NCBI GenBank assembly: GCA_000002445.1 | Contig: CP000066.1 | Coordinates: 1,152,001-1,216,000, forward strand | DNA length: 64,000 nt | Origin: Trypanosoma brucei | Taxonomy: Eukaryota | Direction: 5' to 3' | In this document: one piece after another, positions 1-61,189 of the stretch | How the letters are laid out: each line of letters begins with the position of its first letter | Numbering within the stretch: position 1 is the stretch's first letter | The notes under the pieces: model-generated | The model's input: the letters and a program-made list of their open reading frames with translations, nothing else | The model's database searches: none | Told to the model about the DNA's origin: nothing | Program-made: the position numbers and the translations under genes

Positions 1-313
1 CGCTGGGGTTCGCTATCTTTCCATCGAAGGTGAGGCCAAAAAGCAGGAAGCCCAAGAATCCAAGGAAACCAGCAATTGGCAGGACCACCATCGGACCAGC
101 GTAATCGAACAGGGCACCACCAATAAAACTGCAGTAACCGATGCAATTGCCAACGGTACTGATAGTTGTAATGTCACTCTGTGAAAGACGATATTTCTCC
201 CGCAGATGTGCCGCAAAAACAGAGAATCCGTAAGTCGATGATACAACAAGACCAGCATAAACTCCTGCCATCAGCATGCGTACTCGCGCAAGGTCATCGA
301 CAAGGTAAACCAT
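1..313 (-). CDS. MFS-like 12-TM transporter, array copy 0 (N-terminal portion only; the gene runs off the left edge of the window)
   Basis: ATG at 313..311 (reverse complement) reads MVYLVDDLARVRMLMAGVYAGLVVSSTYGFSVFAAHLREKYRLSQSDITTISTVGNCI, collinear with the N-termini of the full copies at 2649/4968/7289 but a distinct sequence variant. The spacing to the next copy (about 2.33 kb) matches the array period. Confidence 0.6.
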   Translation of the reverse strand, partial: MVYLVDDLARVRMLMAGVYAGLVVSSTYGFSVFAAHLREKYRLSQSDITTISTVGNCIGYCSFIGGALFDYAGPMVVLPIAGFLGFLGFLLFGLTFDGKIANPS

Positions 314-861
314 AACTGCAGGGACTGCGGGTCGGTTTGTTCTGAGTGGAAGTGCGCAAGTAGTAGCTCTATTTTACTCTTTGTGTGGAAACATTTGTCA
401 GGTAAAGAAGAAAAATGAGTAATAAGAGTGTTAGAAAAGGAATCCATAGAGAGGTAAAGGGAAGCACTGATATGTATCACTGCCGTGTTGCAACGGCTTC
501 GTGACGGAAAAAACAAAGGTTTCGCAGAGACTGGGAAACTGACCACGTAAAATCATTCAAACAGCGTTTCTAAACTGTCGTGCAGTAAAGAATAAAGTAA
601 AGGAAGAGCGAAACGTGGCTGCCTGCTCACACGAACAAAACACTCTAAGGTAAAACAAAATCCACCCATCAACCACTAAGAGTGATCAAACGGCACACCC
701 TCTTGTTTGCAAGAAGCAACACAATGTGGGAGTGAGGAGCAATTATTATATTGATTAGTAGTCACATCAAGGATAAATTCAACGTAACAAGATTTATGAG
801 ATAGAGGCAAATGCATATTTTCAATTTAGAGTTCAGGTACGGCAACAGCTGTAAAACAACC

Positions 862-2649
862 CTACTGCTGCGCTGCTCCGCCACTGTGTGAGCCCCCTTC
901 ATTTGGCTGCCCCGCATCCTCTGTAACAGGAGCAGCGACACCACTCATCTCATCAGCTGGCTCATTACACCTGTTCTGCTCAGCATTAATGAAACGCGAA
1001 AATCTGAAGTGGACAATCGCTGCAGCGACCGCTGCCACAACATTGACACCCATCAGTATGAGCATCTGGTTTTTGACACACGAAGGGTTTTTACACTCGG
1101 GTTTCGTACCAAGCTTCTCAGCCTCAGCATCGTACATACCACCGAACATGAAGAGGTTGAGCGCTATTGTCGCTGCGACACCGGAGGAAAAGCCGAAGTT
1201 ATAGTGCTTTCCCAAATCCTGTGAATACATTATACGAAACGCAAGCACACCACTTCCCCAACCTGCTCCGTTGCCCAAAGCCCCAAGGAAGAAAGGAAGG
1301 ATCAGCGCGTTAGCGGGAAGCAACGCGAAGAGCAGGAAGGCGATGCACAACATCAGAGGGCAAAATGGGAGCGCAATTGTTGTGGGAAACGTTTTAAGCC
1401 CCTCTCGCTGCCGCCGTGTCAGCACCATATCCAGATATCCCATAGACATGCGACCAACAGCACTGCCAACAGACATCATGGTGATATACAGTGTTAGAGT
1501 GGAGCTTTTCTTCCCACCGTAACTTTTGCTCTCATAAATTTGGGCAGCGTTCATCTGCATGACAGTTCCAGTACCCCACATACCAAAGCATGTAAGCCAC
1601 ATGCACCAAAGATCCACGGTAAGCAAGTGCTGCCAGAAGGACCCACTGTACTGCGGCAATGGCTTCACCTCGTTCTTCGTTGTAGCTACCGCTGATTCGG
1701 TCACAACATCCTCCAGTGCCTCTCCAATTGTGTCCATATCCGTAGGGCGCACTGGAGTATATCGTCCAAGCCATTGAAACGGCAACGCAACGACACAAAA
1801 TGATGCCATCATGAGCACTGCAATAATCGAAAAGGCCAAATAGGCAGCCGGAGGAAGCTTTACATATCCACCAATGAGTGATTGTGTGGTGAGAAACAAC
1901 AGCAGGCTGAGGACGAGTCCCACAGCTATCTTCATCCTTCTGGGAGGCGCAGGCTGGTTCATGTATAACTGAAGTGTCTGCTGTCGCTTCGTCCACTCCT
2001 CTTCACTTAGCCGTTGCTTCCGCCACGCACAAGGAAAGTACATGGGCATGCGAGTTACGCTGAGAGCAATGAGTGACACGACCACCAACTGTATGGCAAC
2101 AAAGTACGCGAAACCCGAGTAGTTGTTATTGCTCAAGTCATCGGATGTGGTATCCTTAAACCACCCGTTGAAGTAAGCCATTAGCACCCCGGTACCGAGA
2201 CCACTGATTGTCTTGGACACGAGCACAACATAACCCCTGTCAAGTGGAAACTGCAGCATCAGTGGCATAATCGTCGAAACATCCAACCACGGCGTCCCCA
2301 GATAAAGAATAGCGTTAAAAGTGGAGAAGAGACCGACGCTGGGGTTCGCTATCTTTCCATCGAAGGTGAGGCCAAAAAGCAGGAAGCCCAAGAATCCAAG
2401 GAAACCAGCAATTGGCAGGACCACCATCGGACCAGCGTAATCGAACAGGGCACCACCAATAAAACTGCAGTAACCGATGCAATTGCCAACGGTACTGATA
2501 GTTGTAATTTCACTCTGTGAAAGACGATATTGCTTGCGCATGTAGACGGAAAAAAGGGAGAATCCGTAAGTCGATGATACAACAAGACCAGCATAAACTC
2601 CTGCCATCAGCATGCGTACTCGCGCAAGGTCATCGACAAGGTAAACCAT
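862..2649 (-). CDS. MFS-like polytopic membrane transporter (595 aa, about 12 predicted TM helices in a 6+6 layout with a central charged loop), array copy 1
   Basis: Long ORF with a true ATG (atggtttaccttgtcgatgac = MVYLVDD). There are twelve hydrophobic segments and a hydrophilic central loop (RMPMYFPCAWRKQRLSEEEWTKRQQ), the classic MFS topology. It is more than 95% identical to copies 2 and 3 over the C-terminal roughly 440 aa. The exact family (nodulin-like, folate/biopterin-type or other) is not resolved from memory. Confidence 0.75.
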   Translation of the reverse strand: MVYLVDDLARVRMLMAGVYAGLVVSSTYGFSLFSVYMRKQYRLSQSEITTISTVGNCIGYCSFIGGALFDYAGPMVVLPIAGFLGFLGFLLFGLTFDGKIANPSVGLFSTFNAILYLGTPWLDVSTIMPLMLQFPLDRGYVVLVSKTISGLGTGVLMAYFNGWFKDTTSDDLSNNNYSGFAYFVAIQLVVVSLIALSVTRMPMYFPCAWRKQRLSEEEWTKRQQTLQLYMNQPAPPRRMKIAVGLVLSLLLFLTTQSLIGGYVKLPPAAYLAFSIIAVLMMASFCVVALPFQWLGRYTPVRPTDMDTIGEALEDVVTESAVATTKNEVKPLPQYSGSFWQHLLTVDLWCMWLTCFGMWGTGTVMQMNAAQIYESKSYGGKKSSTLTLYITMMSVGSAVGRMSMGYLDMVLTRRQREGLKTFPTTIALPFCPLMLCIAFLLFALLPANALILPFFLGALGNGAGWGSGVLAFRIMYSQDLGKHYNFGFSSGVAATIALNLFMFGGMYDAEAEKLGTKPECKNPSCVKNQMLILMGVNVVAAVAAAIVHFRFSRFINAEQNRCNEPADEMSGVAAPVTEDAGQPNEGGSHSGGAAQQ

Positions 2650-3210
2650 AACTGCAGGGACTGCGGGTCGGTTTGTTCTGAGTGGAAGTGCGCAAGTAGT
2701 AGCTCTATTTTACTCTTTGTGTGGAAACATTTGTCAGGTAAAGAAGAAAAATGAGTAATAAGAGTGTTAGAAAAGGAATCCATAGAGAGGTAAAGGGAAG
2801 CACTGATATGTATCACTGCCGTGTTGCAACGGCTTCGTGACGGAAAAAACAAAGGTTTCGCAGAGACTGGGAAACTGACCACGTAAAATCATTCAAATAG
2901 CGTTTTATTTTTACCACAAAGTGGAAGAGAGAAAAAGAAGAGTTAGGAAAAAAAAAACGTTCGAAGACAGAAAAAATAGTAACCCACTAATCACTGAGAG
3001 TGGATATACAACATACTTTTAATACTAAAAAAAAATTTAAAAACTTATTTCTTGAATCGGGCCGCACCCTCACGCAGAAACAACAACCACATCTAACAGA
3101 AAAGAAAACATACGATTTTTAACACAAAGAAGGATAACACACGGTAAGACAGAAAAATACTATGGAAATATGCAAAAAATACTATTTCGTTTTTCTTAAC
3201 CCCCCAAAAA

Positions 3211-4968
3211 TTATTGCTTCTTTCCTGAATGTCCACCGCTAGTAACAGGAGCAGCGACACCACTCATCTCATCAGCTGGCTCATTACACCTGTTCTGCTC
3301 AGCATTAATGAAACGCGAAAATCTGAAGTGGACAATCGCTGCACCGACCGCTGCCACAACATTGACACCCATCAGTATGAGCATCTGGTTTTTGACACAC
3401 GAAGGTTGCTTACACTCGGGTTTCGTACCAAGCTTCTCAGCCTCAGCATCGTACATACCACCGAACATGAAGCGGTTGAGCGCTATTGTCGCTGCGACAC
3501 CGGAGGAAAAGCCGAAGTGGTAGTGCTTTCCCAAATCCTGTGAATACATTATACGAAACGCAAGCACAACACTTCCCCAACCTGCTCCGTTACCCAAAGC
3601 CCCAAGGAAGAAAGGAAGGATCAGCGCGTTAGCGGGAAGCAACGCGAAGAGCAGGAAGGCGATGCACAACATCAGAGGGCAAAATGGGAGCGCAATTGTT
3701 GTGGGAAACGTTTTAAGCCCCTCTCGCTGCCGCCGTGTCAGCACCATATCCAGATATCCCATAGACATGCGACCAACAGCACTGCCAACAGATATCATGG
3801 TGATATACAGTGTTAGAGTGGAGCTTTTCTTCTCACCGTAACTTTTGCTCTCATAAATTTGGGCAGCGTTCATCTGCATGACGACCGCAGTACCCCACAC
3901 GCCAAAGCATGTAAGCCACATGCACCAAAGATCCACGGTAAGCAAGTGCTGCCAGAAGGACCCGCTGTACTGCGGCAATGGCTTCACCTCGTTCTTCGTT
4001 GTAGCTACCGCTGATTCGGTCACAACATCCTCCAGTGCCTCTCCAATTGTGTCCATATCCGTAGGGCGCACTGGAGTATATCGTCCAAGCCATTGAAACG
4101 GCAACGCAACGACACAAAATGATGCCATCATGAGCACTGCAATAATCGAAAAGGCCAAATAGGCAGCCGGAGGAAGCTTTACATATCCACCAATGAGTGA
4201 TTGTGTGGTGAGAAACAACAGCAGGCTGAGGACGAGTCCCACAGCTATCTTCATCCTTCTGGGAGGCGCAGGCTGGTTCATGTATAACTGAAGTGTCTGC
4301 TGTCGCTTCGTCCACTCCTCTTCACTTAGCCGTTGCTTCCGCCACGCACAAGGAAAATACATGGGCATGCGAGTTACGCTGAGAGCAATGAGTGACACGA
4401 CCACCAACTGTATGGCAACAAAGTACGCGAAACCCGAGTAGTTGTTTTTTTCCACATCATCGGATGTGGTATCCTTAAACCACCCGTTGAAGTAAGCCAT
4501 TAGCACCCCGGTACCGAGACCACTGATTGTCTTGGACACGAGCACAACATAACCCCTGTCAAGTGGAAACTGCAGCATCAGTGGCATAATCGTCGAAACA
4601 TCCAACCAAGAAAATGTGCAATTTACGAGAGCATTGTAAAAGCAAAAGAGACCGACGCTGGGGTTCGCTATCTTTCCATCGAAGGTGAGACCAAAAAGCA
4701 GGAAGCCCAAGAATCCAAGGAAACCAGCAATTGGCAGGACCACCATCGGACCAGCGTAATCGAACAGGGCACCACCAGGGAAACTGAAGTACAGCATGCA
4801 GGTTCCAACGGTACTGATAGTTGTAATGTCTCCCTGTGTCATATTAAATTTGCTCCTTAAGAATGGCGTGAAAATCGAAAAGCAGTATGCCTTTGAGACA
4901 CCCAATCCAGCATAAACTCCTGCCATCAGCATCCGCATACGGGCAAGGTCATCGACAAGGTAAACCAT
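3211..4968 (-). CDS. MFS-like polytopic membrane transporter, array copy 2 (585 aa; variant N-terminus and variant C-terminal tail ...VTSGGHSGKKQ)
   Basis: Paralogue of 862..2649. The N-terminal roughly 130 aa are diverged (MVYLVDDLARMRMLMAGVYAGLGVSKAYCFSIFTPFLRSKFNMTQGDITT), the core is near-identical, and the last roughly 12 codons and the 3' flank (2926-3210, A-rich) are unrelated to the other copies. Confidence 0.75.
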   Translation of the reverse strand: MVYLVDDLARMRMLMAGVYAGLGVSKAYCFSIFTPFLRSKFNMTQGDITTISTVGTCMLYFSFPGGALFDYAGPMVVLPIAGFLGFLGFLLFGLTFDGKIANPSVGLFCFYNALVNCTFSWLDVSTIMPLMLQFPLDRGYVVLVSKTISGLGTGVLMAYFNGWFKDTTSDDVEKNNYSGFAYFVAIQLVVVSLIALSVTRMPMYFPCAWRKQRLSEEEWTKRQQTLQLYMNQPAPPRRMKIAVGLVLSLLLFLTTQSLIGGYVKLPPAAYLAFSIIAVLMMASFCVVALPFQWLGRYTPVRPTDMDTIGEALEDVVTESAVATTKNEVKPLPQYSGSFWQHLLTVDLWCMWLTCFGVWGTAVVMQMNAAQIYESKSYGEKKSSTLTLYITMISVGSAVGRMSMGYLDMVLTRRQREGLKTFPTTIALPFCPLMLCIAFLLFALLPANALILPFFLGALGNGAGWGSVVLAFRIMYSQDLGKHYHFGFSSGVAATIALNRFMFGGMYDAEAEKLGTKPECKQPSCVKNQMLILMGVNVVAAVGAAIVHFRFSRFINAEQNRCNEPADEMSGVAAPVTSGGHSGKKQ

Positions 4969-5501
4969 AACTGCAGGGACTGCGGGTCGGTTTGTTCTGA
5001 GTGGAAGTGCGCAAGTAGTAGCTCTATTTTACTCTTTGTGTGGAAACATTTGTCAGGTAAAGAAGAAAAATGAGTGATAAGAGTGTTAGAAAAGGAATCC
5101 ATAGAGAGGTAAAGGGAAGCACTGATATGTATCACTGCCGTGTTGCAACGGCTTCGTGACGGAAAAAACAAAGGTTTCGCAGAGAATGGGAAACTGACCA
5201 CGTAAAATCATTCAAATAGCGTTTTATTTTTACCACAAAGTGGAAGAGCGAAACGTGGCTGCCTGCTCACACGAACAAAACACTCTAAGGTAAAACAAAA
5301 TCCGCCCATCAACCACTAAGAGTGATCAAATGGCACACCCTCTTGCTTGCAAGAAGCAACACAATGTGGGAGTGAGGAGCAATTATTATATTGATTAGTA
5401 GTCACATCAAGGATAAATTCAACGTAACAAGATTTATGAGATAGAGGCAAATGCATATTTTCAATTTAGAGTTCAGGTACGGCAACAGCTGTAAAACAAC
5501 C

Positions 5502-7289
5502 CTACTGCTGCGCTGCTCCGCCACTGTGTGAGCCCCCTTCATTTGGCTGCCCCGCATCCTCTGTAACAGGAGCAGCGACACCACTCATCTCATCAGCTGG
5601 CTCATTACACCTGTTCTGCTCAGCATTAATGAAACGCGAAAATCTGAAGTGGACAATCGCTGCAGCGACCGCTGCCACAATATTGACACCCATCAGTATG
5701 AGCATCTGGTTTTTGACACACGAAGGGTTTTTACACTCGGGTTTCGTACCAAGCTTCTCAGCCTCAGCATCGTACATACCACCGAACATGAAGAGGTTGA
5801 GCGCTATCGTTGACACAATTCCAGAACTGTAGCCGAAGTGGTAGTGCTTTCCCAAATCCTGTGAATACATCGTACGAATTACAAGCACACAACACCCCCA
5901 ACCTGCTCCGTTGCCCAAAGCCCCAAGGAAGAAAGGAAGGATCAGCGCGTTAGCGGGAAGCAACGCGAAGAGCAGGAAGGCGATGCACAACATCAGAGGA
6001 CCAAATGGGAGCGCAATTGTTGTGGGAAACGTTTTAAGCCCCTCTCGCTGCCGCCGTGTCAGCACCATATCCGTGAACCCCATAGACACGCGACCAACAG
6101 CACTGCCAACAGACATCATGGTGATATACAGTGTTAGAGTGGAGCTTTTCTTCCCGCCGTAACTTTTGCTCTCATAAATTTGTGCAGCGTTCATCTGCAT
6201 GACAGTTCCAGTACCCCACACGCCGAAGCATGTAAGCCACATGCACCAAAGATCCACGGTAAGCAAGTGCTGCCAGAAGGACCCACTGTACTGCGGCAAT
6301 GGCTTCACCTCGTTCTTCGTTGTAGCCACCGCTGATTCGGTCACAACATCCTCCAGTGCCTCTCCAATTGTGTCCATATCCGTAGGGCGCACTGGAGTAT
6401 ATCGTCCAAGCCATTGAAACGGCAACGCAACGACACAAAATGATGCCATCATGAGCACTGCAATAATCGAAAAGGCCAAATAGGCAGCCGGAGGAAGCTT
6501 TACATATCCGCCAATGAGTGATTGTGTGGTGAGAAACAACAGCAGGCTGAGGACGAGTCCCACAGCTATCTTCATCCTTCTGGGAGGCGCAGGCTGGTTC
6601 ATGTATAACTGAAGTGTCTGCTGTCGCTTCGTCCACTCCTCTTCACTTAGCCGTTGCTTCCGCCACGCACAAGGAAAGTACATGGGCATGCGAGTTACGC
6701 TGAGAGCAATGAGTGACACGATCAGCAATCTAGCGGCAATGAAGTACATGAAACCCGAGTAGTTGTTTTTTTCCACATCATCGGATGTGGTATCCTTAAA
6801 CCACCCGTTGAAGTAAGCCATTAGCACCCCGGTACCGAGACCACTGATTGTCTTCAACACGAGCACAACATAACCCCTGTCAAGTGGAAACTGCAATATC
6901 GCCGGCATGATCGTTGCAACATCTAATGTTGGGATCCCCGAATAAACTATTGCGTCGAAGACACAGAAAAGGGTTAAAGTCGGGTTCGCTATCTTTCCAT
7001 CGAAGGTGAGACCAAAAAGCAGGAAGCCCAAAGACCCTAGAAACCCACCAAGGGGGAGTAGCACCATCGGACCAGCGTAATCGAACAGAGCACCGATTGG
7101 AAAGCTGCAGTAACCGATGCAATTGCCGACGGTACTGATAGTTGCAATTTCACTTTGCGACAGACGATACTTTTTTCGCAGAAGAACGGCCATTAATGTG
7201 AAGCAATATGGGGCCGCTGTAGAAGCCATTGTATACACCCCGGAAGCTAACATGCGTACTCGCGCAAGGTCATCGATAATATACGTCAT
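5502..7289 (-). CDS. MFS-like polytopic membrane transporter, array copy 3 (595 aa; most diverged N-terminal third)
   Basis: MTYIIDDLARVRMLASGVYTMASTAAPYCFTLMAVLLRKKYRLSQSEIAT..., with the same C-terminal tail as copy 1 (GGSHSGGAAQQ). There are scattered substitutions in TM2-TM5 and TM10-11. Confidence 0.75.
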   Translation of the reverse strand: MTYIIDDLARVRMLASGVYTMASTAAPYCFTLMAVLLRKKYRLSQSEIATISTVGNCIGYCSFPIGALFDYAGPMVLLPLGGFLGSLGFLLFGLTFDGKIANPTLTLFCVFDAIVYSGIPTLDVATIMPAILQFPLDRGYVVLVLKTISGLGTGVLMAYFNGWFKDTTSDDVEKNNYSGFMYFIAARLLIVSLIALSVTRMPMYFPCAWRKQRLSEEEWTKRQQTLQLYMNQPAPPRRMKIAVGLVLSLLLFLTTQSLIGGYVKLPPAAYLAFSIIAVLMMASFCVVALPFQWLGRYTPVRPTDMDTIGEALEDVVTESAVATTKNEVKPLPQYSGSFWQHLLTVDLWCMWLTCFGVWGTGTVMQMNAAQIYESKSYGGKKSSTLTLYITMMSVGSAVGRVSMGFTDMVLTRRQREGLKTFPTTIALPFGPLMLCIAFLLFALLPANALILPFFLGALGNGAGWGCCVLVIRTMYSQDLGKHYHFGYSSGIVSTIALNLFMFGGMYDAEAEKLGTKPECKNPSCVKNQMLILMGVNIVAAVAAAIVHFRFSRFINAEQNRCNEPADEMSGVAAPVTEDAGQPNEGGSHSGGAAQQ

Positions 7290-8790
7290 TTTGTGACCTT
7301 TCTGTGTGTACAGGTTGCACTATACTGTTTCGAGTTTGTAAGGGGAATGGGTATCGTTGTTGCTGAGGAATACTGCTTCCTTTCTTGGCTGGTTTTTGTT
7401 TTACTTTCGCATTACCTATCTGTAAGTTTGTTTTTGAAGAGTAGTTGATTGCTAATGGGCTATGCCGACACAGTTTGCTGTTAATTATTGTCGCTTCTGC
7501 TTTTTTTTAAAAAAAGAAAAAAATGCTCATCTTAAAACTGTTTAATATTCTTGGGGGGAGGGGAGTGTCTTCATTTCTTGCAGAGTACCTATGGCGCAGT
7601 ATTTGCTATTGTGGCCACACTTCGTGGCAGCAAAGCCCCTCAAACATCTCTGCTGCGAAGCACGATTACCAGCATTGTTATTTGGATTCATTTATGCGAT
7701 GCTTTGCATTTCCTCCCCCGACACGGCAGTCTTTAAGTGTTCGGGAGCTCCCTCGTGATGGCACCTCCTGGCAGCGTACTAAAATGTTTAGCGCAATTTT
7801 CGTTTGTTGCACGTCTCGATCTCTGAGGGCAATGACACTGGGAAGAACATGGAAAGGTTCCGGTCCCCAGCTCTTAGACCCTCATTATACCACGGGTAGT
7901 TGGTGGATCTAGCGCTTTGCCTCGGAAGGGAAAACTGTGCTCCCGCTGTCGCGATTTGTCAACATCGCAGCGTTACAAAGAAAAAAAGCGAAGGCGTACA
8001 AGTTAATGGGCAAACGGTTGTGTAAAATGTATGCCATGTGGGTGGGTGTGGAGAGGGGGGGGATAAAGGTGAGCACGGAAACGCTGACGGTACGCCAAAT
8101 GCATCAGCTTCAAGTTGTACGGCCATCGGCAGCGTAACGTTGTAATAGAGTTCCGTTTTTTAAAGGAAAAGACAAAGGGCAACAGCAAAACAATAGGGTT
8201 GTAAGGCATGCAGAGAGAAGAGTGAGAATAATTGGCCAAAACCAAGCACAGACACCAATCCCTCAACAGCACTAACCAGAGAGACAGCAACCAACGGCGA
8301 AGAAGAGCAATGGAAGGGAAAGTGCTAACGTAGTTTCAAGGTGATGCGTCCCGCGGTGCCATTAAAAGGACCGAGACTTGCCAGACACCAGCGCCCCACC
8401 GTGTGCAGTAAACAGAGACAAGGTGACCCACGAGTCACGAAAAATAAAGGGCGTGAACATCTCGTCCATACAGCATGGGGTGACTCACGTCACAAAGCCC
8501 AAACTACTGATGTTATCCACATCCCGGCGTGGTGGTCACCCGCTTCTATCAAGTGACTAGCTACTCGGCAGCAAAAGAATGGGGGGAGGAAGTGCTAGCA
8601 TAAACACTCATAATGAAGATCTTAGAGTTACAACAAAGGAGGGAAAGTGTGGGGAAGCATGCATAACATGCGCTCCGTGGGATTGTGTTACATGCCGTTC
8701 GCGAACAGGCAACTTCTTTAGTGTGTATTGGACCGCTGACAGAGACCAATTAAAATCATCCTCGGAACTTCCTTAAACCAGACTATCAGA

Positions 8791-10863
8791 CTAGCGACGC
8801 AGTAAGAAGGCGAAGAGTACACCCATTAATGGCACGACGACGATGGCAGCTACCAAGTGAATAGTGATAAGTGGTTTACTCTTCAACCACATCAGCCACA
8901 TTCCTCCTTGTGGTGCGGGAAACAACAACAAACTCTTGTTCTTCGGCAGAGCCAACGTCTCTTCCGCGTTGCAACGCACCACACCACTCCCAAACCCGCT
9001 GCTCGTGGAAAGATCGCTTGCCCTCTCCACAGCGCGGCACGAGCGCCGACTATTTTCACCGTTACCATACGATACAACAGTTGATTGATCTCGGCATTCA
9101 TGGAATGGTAGAGCAGAAACCACGACGTTCTGCGCAATATCTGCGGTCAATACATCATTTAGTGACGAAACAGCGACGGAAGAGATGGGCTCACGGTGCA
9201 ACGCTGGTAGCCACTTGGCCCCTCGCCGCTCCTTTGGTGGACGGAGTGTTCGCGTTTGAAAGCTACCGTTATCACTATATGAAACGGCTGCAAGCGCCCC
9301 GTCGACTGTTCCAACGAGCCAGTTGTGGGGGATGGCGGTTCCAACTCCCTCCCCTCGCATAGCAGCCCCGTCTGAGCTCTCCCTACAATAATAGCAGGGG
9401 CTGATGGAAGTAACGCCATCATTCACCACAGGTGATGGTTCGGGTGAGAAGTACACGCGCAACGCGAGCCTCCTTCGCCTGGTTCTCCCCACGTCGTTCG
9501 CAGCACATGACTCATCAACGACACCACAAGGGAGTTCAGAAGCGTTTGTTGCAGCAACATCATCGCAAGGGGAAGATGTGCTAACCACCCGAGCCGACAG
9601 CATGTACGACTGGTTGCTCATGACATTGAAGACAACGAGAACAATCCTAGCCACTAGCATCTCCCCGCGCACACCCTCCTCGCAATGTAGGCGACGGGCC
9701 CGTCTCCACAATTCACTGGCTACACAGGGCTTGACGTTTTCAACCCCAAACAACTGCACTATTCGCATTGACGATTTCATCAACGAAAAAGGAATACGGC
9801 AATCCTTTCCAGTGAGCACACAAAAATCATCAAGCCTCGTACCAACACGTCTGCTCTCGCTCCGCCTGCTGCTCCAGTCAACCCCACCGCCGATGGAAGC
9901 GGCCAGCTCAGATGCCGTGGTCGAGACCAATCTTTCGTGTATTTGCAACTTCATGGCGGACAATCGAAGCGTTTTGTCCTGCACAAGAACTGCGATGATT
10001 AGATAATCGGAGTATCGCTGGTACCCTTTCGCCCCGTCCTTGGTTTTACTTTTTTTGGGCACAAAGAAACGGTTGGCGTGAAGATCATTGACACGAGCTG
10101 GAAGCGACCAGCTGGCGAGGGGTTCTACGCTCTCCACTAGTGAAGGCGATATTCCCGGCGATGATTGCTTATAATCAGGTGTGCTGCCCCCGCACGTACC
10201 TTCATTACCACTGAGTTCGCCACTGCCAGTTGATAGCGGCTTCCGTAGTAAAGAAGAAAGCTCATACACCAAAATCCCTTCCTCATCGTGGGCAACAACG
10301 ACAGCACCTTGGACGATTGCAATAGGCTTCTTGTCTGGGTTCTTGGGGTCAGCGGGAACACTAACACGGGCCTGTCGCCTTAAAGTGAGGCCCTTTGTTT
10401 CAGGGTCCCTCCACACATCAATCAGCGTAAAGCACGTAATGTGACTAATCGCCAGATAGCCCAATACACCCTCCGACAACTTGGTTTTGTCATTGCACAT
10501 CAAAAAGGACGATGCGCACCAAGGTATATCCCCTTCCAAGTCAATGGCTGTGACAAAACTCCACGGCCTCGAGGGCAATTGGTCCTCCCGCTTTGCCTTT
10601 ATTGAATCCTCATCGGGGCCCTGGAGGGTGCTAACGGAAACAATGGCGAGCAAATTGGCCATACCAAACCGCCTGCCTCCTCCTCCCGCTCCAACAACGG
10701 CATAGCGGTCGTCCAACCACCGCGTGAAGTACACAGGCGAAGGGAACTGCATACAATTGGCAGCCTTCCCAGACGCCGCCACAACATCCGCTGCTGAAAG
10801 TGAAGGGGGCCCCTCGCTACTCATTGTTTCCGAGGACGGAAATACCTTGGTGTCCGCGTTCAT
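8791..10863 (-). CDS. Hypothetical 690-aa protein with a C-terminal transmembrane anchor; candidate Sec12/PREB-like Sar1-GEF (beta-propeller type-II membrane protein)
   Basis: True ATG (atgaacgcggacacc). A near-N-terminal GAGGGGRRFGMAN motif resembles the Sec12-family GGGGxxxxG-phi-xN signature. A single hydrophobic segment sits at the extreme C-terminus (ITIHLVAAIVVVPLMGVLFAFLL) followed by RR. Length and topology fit Sec12. This is an inference, not a verified match. Confidence 0.4.
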   Translation of the reverse strand: MNADTKVFPSSETMSSEGPPSLSAADVVAASGKAANCMQFPSPVYFTRWLDDRYAVVGAGGGGRRFGMANLLAIVSVSTLQGPDEDSIKAKREDQLPSRPWSFVTAIDLEGDIPWCASSFLMCNDKTKLSEGVLGYLAISHITCFTLIDVWRDPETKGLTLRRQARVSVPADPKNPDKKPIAIVQGAVVVAHDEEGILVYELSSLLRKPLSTGSGELSGNEGTCGGSTPDYKQSSPGISPSLVESVEPLASWSLPARVNDLHANRFFVPKKSKTKDGAKGYQRYSDYLIIAVLVQDKTLRLSAMKLQIHERLVSTTASELAASIGGGVDWSSRRSESRRVGTRLDDFCVLTGKDCRIPFSLMKSSMRIVQLFGVENVKPCVASELWRRARRLHCEEGVRGEMLVARIVLVVFNVMSNQSYMLSARVVSTSSPCDDVAATNASELPCGVVDESCAANDVGRTRRRRLALRVYFSPEPSPVVNDGVTSISPCYYCRESSDGAAMRGEGVGTAIPHNWLVGTVDGALAAVSYSDNGSFQTRTLRPPKERRGAKWLPALHREPISSVAVSSLNDVLTADIAQNVVVSALPFHECRDQSTVVSYGNGENSRRSCRAVERASDLSTSSGFGSGVVRCNAEETLALPKNKSLLLFPAPQGGMWLMWLKSKPLITIHLVAAIVVVPLMGVLFAFLLRR

Positions 10864-12068: not shown

Positions 12069-12409
12069 GGTGCCGATAATTATCACTTTTAAAACTGCAC
12101 ACGGGTCAACAGAACACACAACGGCGCCCGTGAAGTGATTGACACCGAGGAACCCCCAGCTATCCTGGTGTGTTACTGAGTCGTGGTTTGAGTTTGAGCG
12201 GTGATTAATGAAAAGAACAGAAGGTAGAGTAAGTAAACCAAGTCGGGCAGTACCAATTTAAAAACGCGAGTGGGGTAAAAGCGAGGCCACGCAAACAGCA
12301 TCCCAGAGTGTGCTGCAGGGGGATACTGGTGTTTTTTTTCTTCGCAAATTGTTATCCTTACGCGGCCCACACCAATTCCATTGTAACGGCCACTCCATGA
12401 AACCTTGTG

Positions 12410-14095
12410 TTACTGTCTGGTGAGTTCACAAACCGCAGCCACATAATAAAACGTTGTTATATCCCTTTCCTCCGTGGCACCCTCCTTCTCCTCCACCTCA
12501 CAGCCATGTGGGAGGACGACCATAAGCACGATGGCGTAGTAACTCGTCAACTGGTTCCACCGGTTATTGCAGAGCCAGTGCACATACGCCTCCTTCCGAC
12601 CTCCGCTGTTGATATTCTTTTGCCAACCCTTTACAATCGCGGCTGCGTGAGACGCAAGGGGATCCACGCCTATGACTTCGCTATGAGCGGCTGCCCCATC
12701 ATCGACAGCGACATCTTCGATTTCTTCCACTTTTATTTCTGCATTCTTTTTATTTTTCATCTGTTGTCTAATTGAAGCACTGGTGCGAATCAGGGATATC
12801 ACCTGGTCCGCCTCCCCAGTTAGCACACCAAAGCAGCAATGCCGACCAGCAAGGTCCATTAACTCCTCTTGTACAACTTGCTCTTGACCACTTCCCGATA
12901 CGTCGTAGTGATGGGGGTCCAGATCGCTCGGGGAAAAATACAAAGAAGGCGGTAACCTTCCGATCGAGTGCGAGTCATCTTCCTTCGCCACCAGATGCGG
13001 TATAAACGGGCGTTGGCGTCCATCGGACACGCGAATGGAGCGCAGGAACGGCGGTAACCCAAAAAACTCGGCAACGTGCAGGAGACGCGCTAGCGCTTCC
13101 GCACGGTCATATTTTTGTAAAATGTAGGCTCCAGAGGAAATGCGTAGCGGCATAACGAATGGCGAGCCCCAAGACTCACCGCACGGTACACACTCATTCA
13201 CTTTCTCCAGTAAGTTCCTTACCACATCTTGTTCTCCCTGGCGCATGGCACTCACTTCAGGCATGGGCTCCACAAAGTCGATCTGGCCTGCTGATGGACC
13301 GAAGAGTAATTTTGCAACTTCACCTTTCGTACCTACACGGCGTAGCGCGGGAACCAAGCGAAGGTGGAACTCCCGCATTTGCTGTAAGCGTCTCAAGCAT
13401 TCTAGACGTCTGCGTAAAGCACACGGACTTGTTGGTAGCAATTCTGAAGCTGTACTATTGATGGTGCCAGTACGACCTCCATGAGTAAGCAATATGGAAA
13501 ACTTCATTGGAACCGCAGCCTCCGAAAGCTCCACTAGCTTACGCACCAACCTCCAGCGTTGATGGGGTGGGAGAGTTACCGGTACCCCGTTATTTTGAGT
13601 GAGGCTCCTGCCACCTTGAAGACCGTTTTCCACGTAAATGGTAGGCTGTAAAAGCCATGTGGCATCCACGAGAGCCTGTACAGCTACCAGTAGCCGATCC
13701 TCCGTGAGGGCTGAAAACGGGAAGCGCGGCTCTCCCGACATGAAGGGCAATAATTGATCCACCTCTACAAGTGTTCCAATGTTGGCTAAAGACTGCACCA
13801 AAATAGCTGGTCTGCACATACCGCGCCAGAGGTTCACTTCTGGTGCTGTCGGAAGAATGTGTAGGCGGTTTCCCCGCGGCTGTTGTTTCCCGACAGGGGA
13901 TGGTTGTACGCCCACGGCACCTGCAGCCCCCGACCTTTTCCCAGATTGCGGCATAACATCCGAATTTTGACGACCGGATGCCTTCCATGGAGCTGCAGCA
14001 GACGGTACCTTCTTGCTATGGCGCTGCACCGGTGGCTTCACATTGGATGACGCCACAGACTGCTTCTTTGATGCTGCAGGCCGCCGCCGTACCAT
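12410..14095 (-). CDS. Hypothetical conserved protein, 561 aa
   Basis: Long ORF on the transcribed strand with a true ATG (atggtacggcggcgg = MVRRR) and a basic N-terminus. I recognise no family. Confidence 0.55.
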   Translation of the reverse strand: MVRRRPAASKKQSVASSNVKPPVQRHSKKVPSAAAPWKASGRQNSDVMPQSGKRSGAAGAVGVQPSPVGKQQPRGNRLHILPTAPEVNLWRGMCRPAILVQSLANIGTLVEVDQLLPFMSGEPRFPFSALTEDRLLVAVQALVDATWLLQPTIYVENGLQGGRSLTQNNGVPVTLPPHQRWRLVRKLVELSEAAVPMKFSILLTHGGRTGTINSTASELLPTSPCALRRRLECLRRLQQMREFHLRLVPALRRVGTKGEVAKLLFGPSAGQIDFVEPMPEVSAMRQGEQDVVRNLLEKVNECVPCGESWGSPFVMPLRISSGAYILQKYDRAEALARLLHVAEFFGLPPFLRSIRVSDGRQRPFIPHLVAKEDDSHSIGRLPPSLYFSPSDLDPHHYDVSGSGQEQVVQEELMDLAGRHCCFGVLTGEADQVISLIRTSASIRQQMKNKKNAEIKVEEIEDVAVDDGAAAHSEVIGVDPLASHAAAIVKGWQKNINSGGRKEAYVHWLCNNRWNQLTSYYAIVLMVVLPHGCEVEEKEGATEERDITTFYYVAAVCELTRQ

Positions 14096-15016: not shown

Positions 15017-16369
15017 TCAGCCCAGCAAATAACGCTTCACCAATTCACACCCACGCGTACGGATTGCATAGAGCTGCAGCACCCAATACAAACCGTCTCG
15101 CACCCTCCTATCCTCCCGTGCAACGCCGCCACCACAACCCATTGAACCCTCAATATCATCCGGCAGCTCAACACCACTGCACCAACTTCCAAAAAACTGT
15201 GGAACCACAACCCATACAAATTGCCCATCCCCAGAGAAGAAACACGACTGCAAGCCGCAGTGTTTGATGCACCCACCAGTAGTGCTGAAGGAGTTAGAAG
15301 AATTTCCGCGCCCGCTGTTTTGTGTAACGGTGGCTTGCGCAAAGCTTCGCAGCTCCGCACCACCGTCTGCTGAGGCAGCGGGACAGGCTGGCTGCTCCGA
15401 CAACTCATCGCAATCAGCGCTACCACAACGAAATACGTGCAATGTCCCGCGGCTGCTCAGAGCGGCGAGCTGGCGGCCGTTTGAACGACCCGTTGAGTCA
15501 AACGCGAGAGAATGTATGCGCGCCTTCGTCACGCCGCGACGGAACACAAAAAGTAACCGTGCACTCGGTATTTCAAACACCTTCACCGTTGTGCCGCGGG
15601 AAGAAGCTGTTGCCAGCCGGCTTCCATCGCGCGTCATAGCGAGACACACAATTGGGCCCCGGTGCGCCTGCACGATTGCCACGCGCTCTACAGAAGGGCT
15701 GCGACCGCCATGAGGCTCAGTGTTTGGTTCCACCTTGCCGCCTAACCGCTTTCCACAAACCTGAGCAACCCACACATCCCCGAGTCCGTTGTCAGACTGC
15801 GGATACGCTAAATAAGTTACGGGCTCCCCGCGCGGGTCCATCGTGGGTTCGGAGAGTTGAACCAACCCACTGGGGTTGCGAGGCTTAGTGGTGCTTAATT
15901 TCGCCAGATGCCGCAGCGTGGCCAGGTCCATAACATGCACACAATCCTCTAGAATTACAACTAGCAGCTCGCTGTTCATACGCACACCCACAACAGCCGC
16001 CTCAAAGCTCGCGGTGGCGATAACTTCATCTGCGCAGACATCGTAAAGTTGGAGAGCGCGTGGTGTTGTCATTACTCTCCCCTCTTCTCCTCCTCTTCCT
16101 TCCCCCATATTGTCAGACCTCCAACTACCGGTCACCCCACCACAACTCAGAACAAATGCAATGAGAGGAGTTTCACCAAGTACTGCTACAACACCAGGAA
16201 TGCCGTCCACTTTACGACAGCTTTGAACCGTTGATGCTTCACCGGCGGCGGGGATCAATTTCCGTGGAGATTTTCCCACGTCAAGGTGATACCCACGGAG
16301 TCCATCACGACAACCAAGCAACAGAAAGGCTCCACCAGCACTCGAGGCCAACGCGCAGACGTCGCTCAT
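15017..16369 (-). CDS. WD40 beta-propeller protein of the PROPPIN family (Atg18/WIPI-like phosphoinositide effector)
   Basis: True ATG (atgagcgacgtctgc). It contains LLFVFRRGVTKARIHSLAFD...GTLHVFRC, matching the PROPPIN hallmark FRRG motif plus flanking WD-like strands. At 450 aa it is the right size. Confidence 0.6.
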   Translation of the reverse strand: MSDVCALASSAGGAFLLLGCRDGLRGYHLDVGKSPRKLIPAAGEASTVQSCRKVDGIPGVVAVLGETPLIAFVLSCGGVTGSWRSDNMGEGRGGEEGRVMTTPRALQLYDVCADEVIATASFEAAVVGVRMNSELLVVILEDCVHVMDLATLRHLAKLSTTKPRNPSGLVQLSEPTMDPRGEPVTYLAYPQSDNGLGDVWVAQVCGKRLGGKVEPNTEPHGGRSPSVERVAIVQAHRGPIVCLAMTRDGSRLATASSRGTTVKVFEIPSARLLFVFRRGVTKARIHSLAFDSTGRSNGRQLAALSSRGTLHVFRCGSADCDELSEQPACPAASADGGAELRSFAQATVTQNSGRGNSSNSFSTTGGCIKHCGLQSCFFSGDGQFVWVVVPQFFGSWCSGVELPDDIEGSMGCGGGVAREDRRVRDGLYWVLQLYAIRTRGCELVKRYLLG

Positions 16370-18159
16370 GCGTGAAAGTACCCCTCAGTTCCCGTTTGCC
16401 GAAGTCTGCACGCTACGTTGTGCTTCGGGAAGGGAAATGACATTTTCGGCATGCGGTAAAGCAACAGTAAAAAGAAAAGAAAAGAACACAACAAAAGAAT
16501 GATAATTACAAAGGCAATATAGAAAGATAGTAAAAGGGAAGCCTAAGCACGTGACACCCTCATTGCAGAGCGCAAAAAAAAAAAAAGGTGTATGCCACGA
16601 AAATGAGGTTCACAGAATTTCCTCACCCTCCCTCCTCCTTCGTTCAATTATACTTACCACCTCTTCTCTTATTTTGCCCATCTGGTCGATTAGATGGTAC
16701 TATATATATATATAATCGGTACTAACCTTATTTATTAGATATCGAGAGAGAGCTGACGACACAGCGACAGTAAAGTTGACTCAAACGACAGCAGACAATC
16801 TAAAACTGTTCCCGCCTTCGTTTTCCTTTCCTTCTGCTGTTTCCATTTTCTTTTCCTCTTTTCATTTCCGTATGATTAACAATTTTTTTTTAAAAATTAA
16901 AACTAGTGTTATTCGTTTCCCTAACAGTCACAAGCTCTTCTTTTCCTCTGTGAATCGTATCTGACCTCAGCTACCTCTTTTTTGTGTCCCCTTCCCCCAT
17001 TGACGCCTGCCCCCTCCCCACTCCAAATGCATTTTAGACAGTAAGTAGGAAAAGAACAATGACACCAACAAACATGACGGCTGCCGGCAGCAACAACAAA
17101 AACCAACAAAAACCAACAACAATAATAATAATGATAATAATAAAATTAAAACAGCGCTAACGATGAAGCAACAAAATAGGAAACTTCAGTGCTTCATCAC
17201 ATGCGCAAAACATCTCATCATTCCCACTCCCTCTCGCCCCCGTCAAGACATACTCCCCTAACCTTATTAGTGGTAATCCCGTCGTCTCCCTTCCCTTCCA
17301 CTTGGAACAAAATATAAAATTGACACGTGACAACACTTCCGGGATGTAAGTGAAACAAACCAATAAAAACAATGCAAAAATGAAAATAAAAATAAAAATG
17401 AGATGAGATGAAAGAACTAAACAAAAAAGGGGGGTAAACAAATGAAAAGAACTGCGGGTACCACCTTTCAACCGCTAGGAAATTGTTGGTAAAGACGAGC
17501 AAAGCCGAAAAACAGAAAAGAAAAAGAAAGAAAACGCCAGCACTGACCAAAGGTGAGAACGAATCATCATCAAAACAGGACGGGATATGGGCAGACACAT
17601 TTTCTGAGTGCAGCCGGTGGAGTGCTCACCCACGAACAAAAAGAAAAGAAAAAAAAAAGAAACATCGCAAAAAACAATAACAACGTGCGATCATACATTC
17701 CTTGCACGGCACAACCTGTTATCCTTTCCCCCCTTTTCCTTTTTTTTTTACTCTGCTTCAAGCGTGATCAAAAAGTCTACGTGCGCACCAACATAAATTC
17801 TCCCCCTTTCAGCGTTTACTGTTTTTTTTCCTTCTCCTGCGCGGAAGATGGGGATACGGCACGAGAAATGTGCTTTGTGTAACATTCACTACCTACATAT
17901 TTTTAAATAAATATATAAATATACCTGTTTATGTTCATCTTTAATAGGTTCTCGGCCCTTTATGTCGTTTCCTCTTTTTTCCCCCCCTTCTGCGACCGCC
18001 ACAGAGACGGAGGAGAGTACCGTACTCAAGTGGGAAGGGTAATGTAACGTGCAGCAGCAGAAGCAAAGCGAAGGAACAAGTGCTTACTGGTACCTGACGA
18101 AACTTCCACTGTCTCGCACCCGCAATGTATTTTCACACCGCCTCGGTTCCAGACAACTC

Positions 18160-19125
18160 TTATAACTGCGGCGGGTTCTCGAACAACAAATTTGCTGCTC
18201 GTTCAATGCTTCGCTTTGCCTTGAAGAAGGCTACTTTACACTGCTCTCGTGTGAAACCTAGCTGCATCAATTGTTCAATCTTTTCCTCTTCCACCTCCGT
18301 AGGAACACGGTCCAAATAGCGTTGCGTCTCACTACCATCTTCATCCTGCTGCTCAACAACAGCTTCATCATCCAAGTCACTTGCTGCTGCCAAAAACTGT
18401 GACATTACTTCCTCTAACATTTCTTCGTCAAATTCTTCATCCTCTTCCGTTGTCATCACGCCCTCTTCTCTGTCCCGCTGCAGCTCCTCAAAAAAGTTGT
18501 CATTACAGACAAGGTCGAGAAAGGCCTGGCGGTTTTTGGCTATGAGTTCCAAAAGCACCGGATCGTCCGCACTAATTTGCCGTAACACCCCTTCCGGGTC
18601 GGCGAGAAAACGCTGCCGCATCTCAATGAGGTTTGGAACCTCGAAGAGGCGTGCGAGCATTGCCTCCTGACCATCGTCATCATCATCATCATCATCACTT
18701 CCATCACTTCCATCATTCTCATCAAACTCACTTTCCTCGTCCCCATCGGCTTCTTCCGTCCCGCTCTTCTCAACGCCAGTGACGGCTTCAGAATTCCCTT
18801 CCATAGTTCCTGCTGTGGTTGGTGGGGGCGGTACTGCAGATCCATTTTCCTTTGATTTCCCGCTCCCGCTCCCACTCTCCTCTCGCTCATGCTTCGCTAC
18901 CACCGTAATGGTGTCACCATCCTGAATACCAATATTGCGCAGTAAACGTTTATCGTCATTGAGGTCGAAAGTGGCATGCTGCAAGCGAAAACTACCTAAT
19001 GGAAGGCGGAAGTTTATTGCGATGACGGTGCGCAAGTTGTTGAGTGTTGCTTCGGGGTTGGAAATTGTGAGTTCCTTCGTGTTATTACCCGACCCCCCAC
19101 CACCGAGTTTCGCTATCAGCTTCAT
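18160..19125 (-). CDS. UBL-UBA ubiquitin receptor/shuttle factor (Rad23/Dsk2-like): N-terminal ubiquitin-like domain, central XPC-binding/STI1-like helix bundle, C-terminal UBA
   Basis: I start at ATG 19125 (MKLIAKLGGG...), because the upstream part of the track ORF is an F/L/S-rich translation of a polypyrimidine tract. The UBL is ...ISNPEATLNNLRTVIAINFRLPLGSFRLQHATFDLNDDKRLLRNIGIQDGDTITVV. The central segment is LFEVPNLIEMRQRFLADPEGVLRQISADDPVLLELIAKNRQAFLDLV, like the Rad23 XPCB domain. The C-terminal UBA is EEKIEQLMQLGFTREQCKVAFFKAKRSIERAANLLF. There is a poly-Asp tract. Confidence 0.65.
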   Translation of the reverse strand: MKLIAKLGGGGSGNNTKELTISNPEATLNNLRTVIAINFRLPLGSFRLQHATFDLNDDKRLLRNIGIQDGDTITVVAKHEREESGSGSGKSKENGSAVPPPPTTAGTMEGNSEAVTGVEKSGTEEADGDEESEFDENDGSDGSDDDDDDDDGQEAMLARLFEVPNLIEMRQRFLADPEGVLRQISADDPVLLELIAKNRQAFLDLVCNDNFFEELQRDREEGVMTTEEDEEFDEEMLEEVMSQFLAAASDLDDEAVVEQQDEDGSETQRYLDRVPTEVEEEKIEQLMQLGFTREQCKVAFFKAKRSIERAANLLFENPPQL

Positions 19126-58633: not shown

Positions 58634-58939
58634 GGTAGCACTCTTTTATTAAGGATAATCGATTTCTTGTGTTGAAAGTTGTGTGATTTCTGTCTGGTGC
58701 TTGAAGTTCTTACGTGATGTTTCTAGATCTTATTCCTTGCTTTCCTACAAGCTATTGCGAAAAACTGTTTGCCGGACGCGTACAAGATGATGAAGAAAAG
58801 TGTGAGCATCAGTGCAATGTTAAAGCTACACAGGCAAGTGGTGGTGCCGGAAGCCGTCGGTTTGGCACAATAACAGAGCGGATGCTCGAAAACGCATCAT
58901 GGTGACCTACATATACCGACCCAGTTGGGCCTTTATTAC

Positions 58940-58966
58940 ATCTAGTACAAGAATAAGAAAAGACTG
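58940..58966 (-). promoter_or_regulatory. Candidate polypyrimidine tract plus AG trans-splice acceptor for the downstream PFR copy; recurs every 2163 bp (61103-61129, 63266-63292)
   Basis: The minus strand reads gcagtcttttcttattcttgtactag about 300 nt upstream of each PFR ATG. Kinetoplastid SL trans-splicing uses a polyY tract followed by AG. The position is not verified experimentally. Confidence 0.3.
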
Positions 58967-59026
58967 CACAAGACATTGGCATCAAATAACTAGTTGCACT
59001 CAATTTACATAATAATTGCGGCCACA

Positions 59027-60796: not shown

Positions 60797-61189
60797 GGTA
60801 GCACTCTTTTATTAAGGATAATCGATTTCTTGTGTTGAAAGTTGTGTGATTTCTGTCTGGTGCTTGAAGTTCTTACGTGATGTTTCTAGATCTTATTCCT
60901 TGCTTTCCTACAAGCTATTGCGAAAAACTGTTTGCCGGACGCGTACAAGATGATGAAGAAAAGTGTGAGCATCAGTGCAATGTTAAAGCTACACAGGCAA
61001 GTGGTGGTGCCGGAAGCCGTCGGTTTGGCACAATAACAGAGCGGATGCTCGAAAACGCATCATGGTGACCTACATATACCGACCCAGTTGGGCCTTTATT
61101 ACATCTAGTACAAGAATAAGAAAAGACTGCACAAGACATTGGCATCAAATAACTAGTTGCACTCAATTTACATAATAATTGCGGCCACA

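Follow-up and report, generated by a model that had tools for sequence, protein, structure and literature searches.

The 64,000-nucleotide stretch of Trypanosoma brucei DNA analysed here (contig CP000066.1, positions 1,152,001 to 1,216,000 of the forward strand; hereafter the window) begins inside a tandem array of transporter genes. These genes are the 5' part of a five-gene array on chromosome 3 of strain TREU927 (Tb927.3.4070-4110), the TbPT family of pyruvate (monocarboxylate) transporters. We consider it probable that the array holds old, selectively maintained isoform modules, probably situated near the substrate site, together with isoform-specific 3' untranslated regions (3'UTRs), all set in a backbone that gene conversion keeps homogeneous. 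Each repeat unit is a mosaic, in which about 270 nt of shared upstream sequence and the first ~19 codons are followed by isoform-specific patches in transmembrane helices (TM) 1, 2, 4 and 6, a converted core of about 385 codons, and an isoform-specific tail and 3'UTR.

The window contains three complete copies and one copy cut by its edge, arranged head-to-tail on the minus strand with a repeat period of 2319-2336 bp. We number them in the direction of transcription, such that Tb1, Tb2 and Tb3 are copies 3, 2 and 1 of the first-pass annotation of this DNA and Tb4 is its cut copy (copy 0); Tb5 (XP_843999.1), the fifth gene, lies beyond the window start. Among the window copies 102 protein columns vary, and they are very unevenly spread: 66 fall in residues 2-190, none in 191-356 and 26 in 357-576, with a further 10 in the tail of Tb2. 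The first-pass annotation had described the first 130-150 residues or so as different in every copy and the C-terminal 440 or so as almost identical. Variation is indeed concentrated in the N-terminal part, but it is patchy (approximately aa 20-47, 56-65, 104-131 and 172-190), and Tb3 and Tb4 are nearly alike, differing at 8 residues (aa 32-47) over the 104 visible. Likewise, residues 191-356 are invariant but the last 220 are not fully homogenised, since private patches at aa 401-406 and 466-493 occur in Tb1, the copy whose N-terminal variant is also the most divergent.

At the DNA level, sliding identity stands at 58-60 of 60 nt across most of nt 600-1700, with dips to 21-32 (codons 21-40) and 30-37 (codons 101-120). 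Maximum-chi-square analysis placed breakpoints at codons 131, 131 and 120 for three pairs of copies (chi2 178-242, compared with at most 17 in 200 permutations). The boundary between the variable N-terminal module and the core is sharp, therefore, and well beyond chance. Conversion tract boundaries had been predicted to lie inside the coding sequence, with a sharp change near codon 150; they do lie there, at codons 120-131, and divergence along the gene is not uniform. The main variable module, codons 20-131 (TM1-TM4), occupies 6897..7232 in Tb1, where sliding identity drops to 21-26 of 60 nt and the limits rest on the codon 131 breakpoint and the AlphaFold helix limits. It occupies 4576..4911 in Tb2 and 2257..2592 in Tb3, as delimited in both by sliding identity, patch analysis, breakpoints and AlphaFold helix limits. 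The fully homogenised core, codons 191-356, lies at 6222..6719 in Tb1, 3901-4398 in Tb2 and 1582-2079 in Tb3, and spans a cytoplasmic loop, two extra helices and a long loop. All of these features are on the minus strand.

The first-pass annotation had suggested that this pattern reflects diversifying selection on the N-terminal module. Nei-Gojobori estimates of dN/dS (omega, the ratio of non-synonymous to synonymous divergence) between paralogues point the other way. Codons 1-190 gave dS of 0.27-0.95, dN of 0.13-0.23 and omega of 0.24-0.49, and codons 357-576 gave dS of 0.04-0.15, dN of 0.02-0.06 and omega of 0.34-0.60; in codons 191-356 dN was 0 with dS at 0.03-0.04, so that omega is not defined there. 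Within the variable patches of the window copies, the proportion of synonymous differences (pS) was 0.43-0.84 and the corrected dS ranged from 0.63 to unbounded, while omega was never above 0.5. In comparisons involving Tb1, whose patch dS against the other copies was at least 1.6, synonymous sites of the patches were saturated; patch pS between copies 3 and 4 of Trypanosoma brucei gambiense was 0.10. In no 20-codon window of the N-terminal module did the proportion of non-synonymous differences (pN) exceed pS. The annotation had itself named a dN/dS well below 1 in this segment, with differences explained by a few indels, as an outcome that would refute its view; dN/dS is indeed well below 1, although the differences are substitutions, not indels. 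Furthermore, the same N-terminal variants occupy the same array positions in T. b. gambiense, and between positional orthologues of the two subspecies the patches show 0-1 non-synonymous and 2 synonymous changes. The low omega, the saturation of the patches and the scarcity of changes between subspecies together indicate that the N-terminal variants are old and under purifying selection.

We then compared the T. brucei copies with five T. congolense proteins, four full-length T. vivax genes, and 11 proteins from other species, including the T. cruzi clade; for Tb5 and every T. congolense copy the comparison was made on protein sequence. Concerted evolution holds at aa 191-576, where identity is 0.93-1.00 within T. 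brucei versus 0.67-0.70 to T. congolense, but fails at aa 13-131, where it is 0.69-0.73 within T. brucei versus up to 0.76 between species. Tb3 illustrates this well. Over aa 13-131 it is closer to the T. congolense copy Tco_2750 (0.76) than to Tb2 (0.73) or Tb1 (0.69), whereas over aa 191-356 it matches its neighbours completely (1.00) and T. congolense at 0.69. Tb3 is also the variant nearest to other trypanosome species, with its highest variable-site identity to Tco_2750/2770 and to copies of the T. cruzi clade. Fixed differences between T. brucei and T. congolense amount to 11 of 190 columns in the N segment, 44 of 166 in aa 191-356 and 48 of 220 further on.

Judged by such identities, the combination of a variable N-terminal and a uniform C-terminal part recurs in T. 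vivax, T. congolense and the T. cruzi/T. rangeli group. Paralogues within T. vivax and within T. congolense are 0.81-0.85 identical in the N segment and 0.96-1.00 elsewhere. One T. cruzi copy (Tcruzi_a) is 0.88 identical to a T. rangeli copy (Trang_a) in N and 0.76 in C, as against 0.74 in N and 0.92 in C to its own paralogue Tcruzi_b. Neighbour-joining (NJ) trees of this clade agree, pairing Tcruzi_a with Trang_a in the N segment (75%) and uniting all T. cruzi copies in the C segment (100%).

T. brucei and T. congolense share two or more segregating residues at 17 columns, 14 of them in aa 1-190 and 3 in TM7, with one more at aa 195. We tested a split into two classes at the protein level, with {Tb3, Tb4} against {Tb2, Tb5} in T. 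brucei and {2750, 2770} against {2730, 2740, 2760} in T. congolense. Eight columns were congruent with this split (23, 26, 27, 59, 114, 357, 361 and 362) and none was anti-congruent; the class residues are located in TM1, TM2, TM4 and TM7. Class A is represented by Tb3 (VVSSTY / NCIGY / W121 / M357-G361-T362) and class B by Tb2 (GVSKAY / TCMLY / V357-A361-V362), which in addition has its own tail, ...VTSGGHSGKKQ. The residues K26, A27, A361 and V362 were found in neither the T. vivax nor the T. cruzi clade copies, which makes class B look like a derived type older than the T. brucei/T. congolense split.

An AlphaFold model of the transporter (pLDDT 86.8, pTM 0.86) has 14 long helices in a 6+2+6 arrangement, the two extra helices running from 236 to 262 and from 267 to 288. 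The protein had been annotated as having 12 transmembrane helices, a number also given for it in a proteomics paper, but the model does not bear this out. The two extra helices are hydrophobic and, with the adjoining loops, form the most perfectly homogenised part of the gene. A structure search returned 331 matches in the PDB with E <= 0.001, and 50 of the 50 listed are transporters of the major facilitator superfamily (MFS). The best solved neighbours among the matches listed were OxlT (TM-score 0.80) and SfMCT (0.77-0.81; scores normalised to the target). These two MFS carboxylate transporters (the oxalate:formate antiporter OxlT, PDB 8HPK/8HPJ; the L-lactate transporter SfMCT, PDB 6G9X, 6HCL and 6ZGS) were also the only PDB sequence matches. 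TbPT differs from both in its sequence, which is 12-14% identical to theirs, and in having the two extra helices and long loops between the bundles.

Helix by helix, the window copies vary at 22 of the 35 residues of TM1, 9 of the 28 of TM2, 17 of the 29 of TM4 and 6 of the 22 of TM6. The cytoplasmic loop, the 56-residue loop and both extra helices contain no variable residue, and about 90% of all such residues belong to predicted transmembrane helices. TM1, TM4, TM7 and TM10 are the helices that line the central cavity of a canonical MFS transporter. A hidden Markov model (HMM) alignment to OxlT, which is weak (E = 0.008) and covers TM1-TM3 only, sets the conserved Tyr28 opposite Tyr35 of OxlT, and aligns Asp70, Gly73 and Pro74 with Asp78, Gly81 and Pro82. 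In the same alignment the variable T27, S31, residue 35, T49 and N56 stand opposite Gln34, Thr38, Asn42, Gln56 and Gln63. In OxlT, Tyr35 bonds the carboxylate, Gln34 and Gln63 belong to a hydrogen-bond network with the substrate-binding Lys355, Thr38 takes part in a bond of the periplasmic gate, and Asn42 and Gln56 line the cavity (PMC10070484). This match of several variable residues to positions of the OxlT binding site and gate is the reason for proposing that the patches may tune substrate handling. Further along, Arg400, part of the motif GSAVGR and with at least 90% conservation across the family, could be the equivalent of OxlT Arg272, the basic residue in TM8 that is expected, like aromatic or polar binding residues in TM1, of OFA/SLC16-like carboxylate transporters of the MFS. 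Searching the C-terminal half against the PDB with phmmer yielded chance matches only, and hence no residue mapping for TM7-TM12.

These results suggest a model in which all copies would be transcribed as one polycistron from the minus strand; this strand carries every long open reading frame (ORF) of the window, consistent with a single polycistronic unit. Conversion between copies keeps the core of ~385 codons nearly identical within a species. Tracts that overwrite the patches would presumably be removed by selection, and the local patch identity of 35-55% would itself make such tracts rare. That the most divergent copy should be Tb1, the one without the shared upstream block, is what might be expected at the edge of an array. 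On this model the patches would alter substrate binding or gating, and the distinct 3'UTR types would give the isoforms different developmental expression. The first-pass suggestion that the N-terminal module affects substrate handling is thus plausible, but as a matter of old, conserved isoform differences and not of ongoing diversification.

A more specific version of this model, which we offer tentatively and consider somewhat less likely than not, is that Salivarian trypanosomes may have kept at least two functional classes of pyruvate transporter (A and B) since before the split of T. brucei and T. congolense. Their co-varying residues would lie at or beside the positions of the carboxylate-binding site and gate of OxlT and be held by selection against conversion. 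The classes might then differ in substrate range or affinity (e.g. pyruvate versus other keto- or hydroxy-acids) and, with their 3'UTRs, by life-cycle stage.

Several observations weigh against the idea of old, maintained isoform modules. The NJ tree of aa 13-190 groups the copies by species (T. brucei 83%, T. congolense 100%, T. vivax 100%), as does that of aa 191-576 for the same three species, which limits the trans-species signal to specific residues and pairwise identities. The residues common to T. brucei and T. congolense could, in principle, be due to parallel evolution. No counterpart of Tb1 was found among the T. congolense copies (variable-site identity 0.31-0.36), and the module of this copy may be specific to its lineage. 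In addition, a small number of positively selected sites can go unnoticed in Nei-Gojobori averages. The link from the patches to substrate handling runs through the weak OxlT alignment of TM1-TM3, and functional data on differences between the isoforms were not found in the literature.

We considered three other explanations for the pattern. In the first-pass proposal, diversifying (positive) selection for substrate specificity or surface exposure acts on the N-terminal module while the rest of the gene evolves in concert. The strong concentration of amino-acid differences in aa 2-190 would fit this, as would a few 20-codon windows in which pN comes close to pS on very small counts (for example codons 61-80, 161-180 and 181-200), and Jackson (2007; PMC1855330) speculated that divergence of this array, there called Tb17, may outstrip conversion in a surface-expressed protein. 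However, omega is 0.24-0.49 over the segment and does not exceed 0.5 even in the saturated patches, T. b. brucei and T. b. gambiense have the variants at fixed array positions with hardly any differences (0-1 amino-acid changes), and class residues are common to T. congolense. Surface exposure is a weak candidate as the driver, since about 90% of the variable residues are in helices and not in loops; variation of loops driven by immunity was rejected on the same grounds, few variable residues being located there. We therefore regard diversifying selection as largely refuted and highly improbable.

A neutral, mechanical mosaic deserves more weight, although we still judge it unlikely. Here the patches would persist through a divergence barrier imposed by mismatch repair and through end copies without shared flanks, the isoforms would be equivalent and the array would serve dosage, which is what Jackson (2007; PMC1855330) argues to be the main role of such arrays. 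Indeed, the most divergent copy, Tb1, is the one with a unique upstream flank, and a nucleotide identity of 35-55% in the patches is too low to start recombination. But a neutral process would not hold omega at or below 0.5, nor limit amino-acid changes between subspecies to 0-1 while synonymous changes accrue. Left unexplained, too, would be the congruent classes that the same residue pairs form in T. congolense and the return of the pattern at the same helices in T. vivax, in T. congolense and in the T. cruzi/T. rangeli group, and the variable sites avoid loops, which are normally the least constrained. Finally, assembly is difficult for tandem 2.3-kb repeats whose blocks are 99-100% identical, and collapsed or chimeric reads might produce such a mosaic. 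This is scarcely credible here: in T. b. gambiense DAL972, an independent genome, the N-terminal types, tails and 3'UTR types follow one another in the same order along five genes, the cloned AFV15805 and a T. equiperdum protein independently carry the Tb2 module, and single reads span the breakpoints of most conversion events (Jackson, 2007; PMC1855330).

The first-pass annotation also proposed that gene conversion is ongoing, and two observations corroborate this. One is a subspecies-specific tract: gambiense copy 1 equals gambiense copy 3 at all polymorphic sites in nt 1293-1728, whereas TREU927 Tb1 differs from Tb3 there. The other is the deposited TbPT0 (AFV15805), which has Tb2 as its closest window copy, being 97.3% identical to it overall and fully identical over aa 1-171. 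At nearly all of its differences from Tb2, TbPT0 has a residue that occurs in another paralogue, in tracts that include LSN at 172-174 (as in Tb3 and Tb4), FVLI-L at 196-201 (as in Tb5) and the long tail (as in Tb1, Tb3 and Tb5). The T. equiperdum protein has the same mosaic over residues 172-201, but Tb2's own C-terminal tail. On these comparisons TbPT0, which comes from another strain, is a mosaic of Tb2 and short tracts of other paralogues and is identical to no TREU927 copy. The published kinetics of TbPT0 are therefore those of a strain-specific mosaic.

That the array is a partly homogenised recombinant mosaic is already known from the work of Jackson, and in this respect our scan rediscovered a published array. 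It is a worked example (Fig. 3) of allelic gene conversion in Jackson (2007; PMC1855330), where the whole-gene tree follows species, forced positional orthology is rejected (delta lnL -3002, p < 0.0001), copy 3 is converted by copy 5, and single reads cross the breakpoints for most conversion events. In Jackson et al. (2010; PMC2854126; array 17, Table 2) it appears with 5+5 copies and five isoforms common to both subspecies, a PHI test at p < 0.001, and 6 (LRT) or 9 (GARD) breakpoints. The array described here and Tb17 thus agree in species-wise clustering of whole genes, conversion tracts, multiple breakpoints and five shared isoforms. The two accounts differ in that Jackson analysed whole copies and suggested that divergence outruns conversion, whereas our analysis is segment-wise. 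In the passages of these papers that we consulted, we did not find old, constrained first ~130 residues escaping homogenisation or the sharing of classes with T. congolense. Conserved, partly trans-species isoform classes near the presumed substrate site may be the only new element.

Pyruvate export is reported to be essential in bloodstream T. brucei, and the family is a drug-target candidate. In the literature we found, one isoform has been characterised; if the modules encode different substrate sites, inhibitors, knock-downs and kinetic models built around a single 'pyruvate transporter' would be incomplete. The locus is also a clean example of selection preserving a few functional residues in a gene otherwise homogenised by conversion, and it illustrates that whole-gene trees, which here report concerted evolution, can hide old classes of paralogues.

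The assignment of the array rests on several lines of evidence, which agree with the first-pass description of a head-to-tail array of MFS transporters and fix the family as Nodulin-like. The Pfam profile Nodulin-like (PF06813) matched the complete copies at 34.0, 35.6 and 38.8 bits over residues 13-203 (gathering threshold 24.7). A homology search gave T. brucei proteins at 89-96% identity and then proteins of other trypanosomes at 52-69%, several of them named 'pyruvate transporter 0' at source. Five TREU927 proteins, together with five genes in the same order at the T. b. gambiense DAL972 locus, give an array copy number of five. Tb1, the first gene (5502..7289, minus strand; 595 aa), matches XP_844003.1 of TREU927 exactly and gave the 38.8-bit Pfam score. 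Tb2, the second (3211..4968, minus strand; 585 aa), equals XP_844002.1 apart from the annotated start, and Tb3, the third (862..2649, minus strand; 595 aa), equals XP_844001.1 plus 12 N-terminal residues. Tb4, the fourth, is represented by its first 104 codons (1..313, minus strand). It had been called truncated, but it is cut only by the window edge, its 104 visible residues being the N-terminus of the full-length XP_844000.1. An ORF of 154 aa recurs in another frame within the homogenised core of each complete copy (1532-1996, 3851-4315 and 6172-6636, minus strand); we rejected these ORFs as genes, since they are a mechanical by-product of the repeat.

In the literature, Tb927.3.4070-110 is named as an MFS array and Tb927.3.4070 is called pyruvate transporter PT1. 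The window array is the same locus as the TbPT0-TbPT4 family and is nothing different in kind; from the order of the accessions we infer how the window copies probably correspond to the names PT0-PT4 and to the locus tags. TbPT0 is said, in papers that cite the original study (Sanchez 2013, J Biol Chem 288:14428), to have been identified as a high-affinity plasma-membrane pyruvate transporter. Transport activity in the literature concerns TbPT0 only, and the other copies are putative pyruvate transporters. The MFST array linked to suramin (Tb927.9.6360-80) was ruled out as the source, because the homology search and exact look-up both led to chromosome 3 and the pyruvate transporter family. 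The PAD (proteins associated with differentiation) array of T. brucei is likewise a tandem of Nodulin-like/MFS_1 carboxylate transporters, and PAD-named proteins were among the distant matches. With ~30% identity to the window genes, however, the PAD proteins form another family at another locus, which excludes the window genes from membership.

The flanks of the copies are as patchwork as their coding regions. Tb2 ends in a block that blastn found nowhere else in the window (2926..3240, minus strand), made up of its last 10 codons and a type B 3'UTR of ~285 nt. The sense strand of the block is rich in T, with A making up 48% of the plus strand. Its identity to the other units is roughly random (20-25 of 60 nt), and it is 87% identical to the flank of the T. 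b. gambiense orthologue. The own tail and unique A-rich 3' flank of this copy had been recognised in the first-pass annotation, as had the flank blocks common to its copies 1 and 3, and both stand. Type A 3'UTRs, defined by identity of the intergenic regions and, for Tb3, also by blastn, follow Tb1 (5249..5501, minus strand) and Tb3 (570..861, minus strand). The intergenic regions behind these two genes share 94% identity, and each resembles its gambiense counterpart at the same array position even more closely (98% and 99%). The 3'UTR types therefore keep their array position between T. b. brucei and T. b. gambiense. In trypanosomes, control through the 3'UTR is the rule for gene regulation. 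Tb927.3.4070 and Tb927.3.4090 are reported in the literature to be ~5-fold higher in bloodstream than in procyclic forms.

Ahead of the ATGs of the downstream genes Tb2, Tb3 and Tb4 lies a shared block of 256-281 nt that is 99-100% identical between units and presumably contains the splice-acceptor and 5'UTR region. It is found at 4969..5248 before Tb2 (99.3% identical to 2650-2930), at 2650..2930 before Tb3 (by blastn) and at 314..569 before Tb4 (99.6% identity over 256 nt), in each case on the minus strand. The upstream region of Tb1 (7290..8790, minus strand) is unique and unrelated to this block, with 26 mismatches in the first 30 nt; it therefore marks the edge of the array.

Directly upstream of the array is a 690-aa ORF (8791-10863, minus strand) with no Pfam match. 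At the T. b. gambiense locus, ORFs of 690 and 561 aa lie upstream of the array, and their lengths and order match those in the window. A PROPPIN/WD40 protein is encoded at 15017-16369 (minus strand; Pfam PF21032, E = 7e-18). The T. vivax locus (L002) has about seven units, including truncated or frame-disrupted copies at 8372-9442, 12180-13928 and 16891-18285. The disrupted copies give products of 356 aa, 464 aa and 582 aa, the last losing similarity after about residue 80, which suggests that these units are pseudogenes or assembly errors.

At the other end of the window there is a second tandem array (56864-62959, minus strand) of three 589-aa ORFs (56864-58633, 59027-60796 and 61190-62959) with a period of 2163 bp. 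These ORFs match the Pfam family Flagellar_rod (paraflagellar rod protein; E = 5.6e-107), and this is probably the 73-kDa paraflagellar rod (PFR) array, array 18, which is next to Tb17 in Jackson (2007; PMC1855330). Lastly, G+C content falls to 0.34 at 48001-50000, compared with 0.42-0.55 elsewhere in the window.

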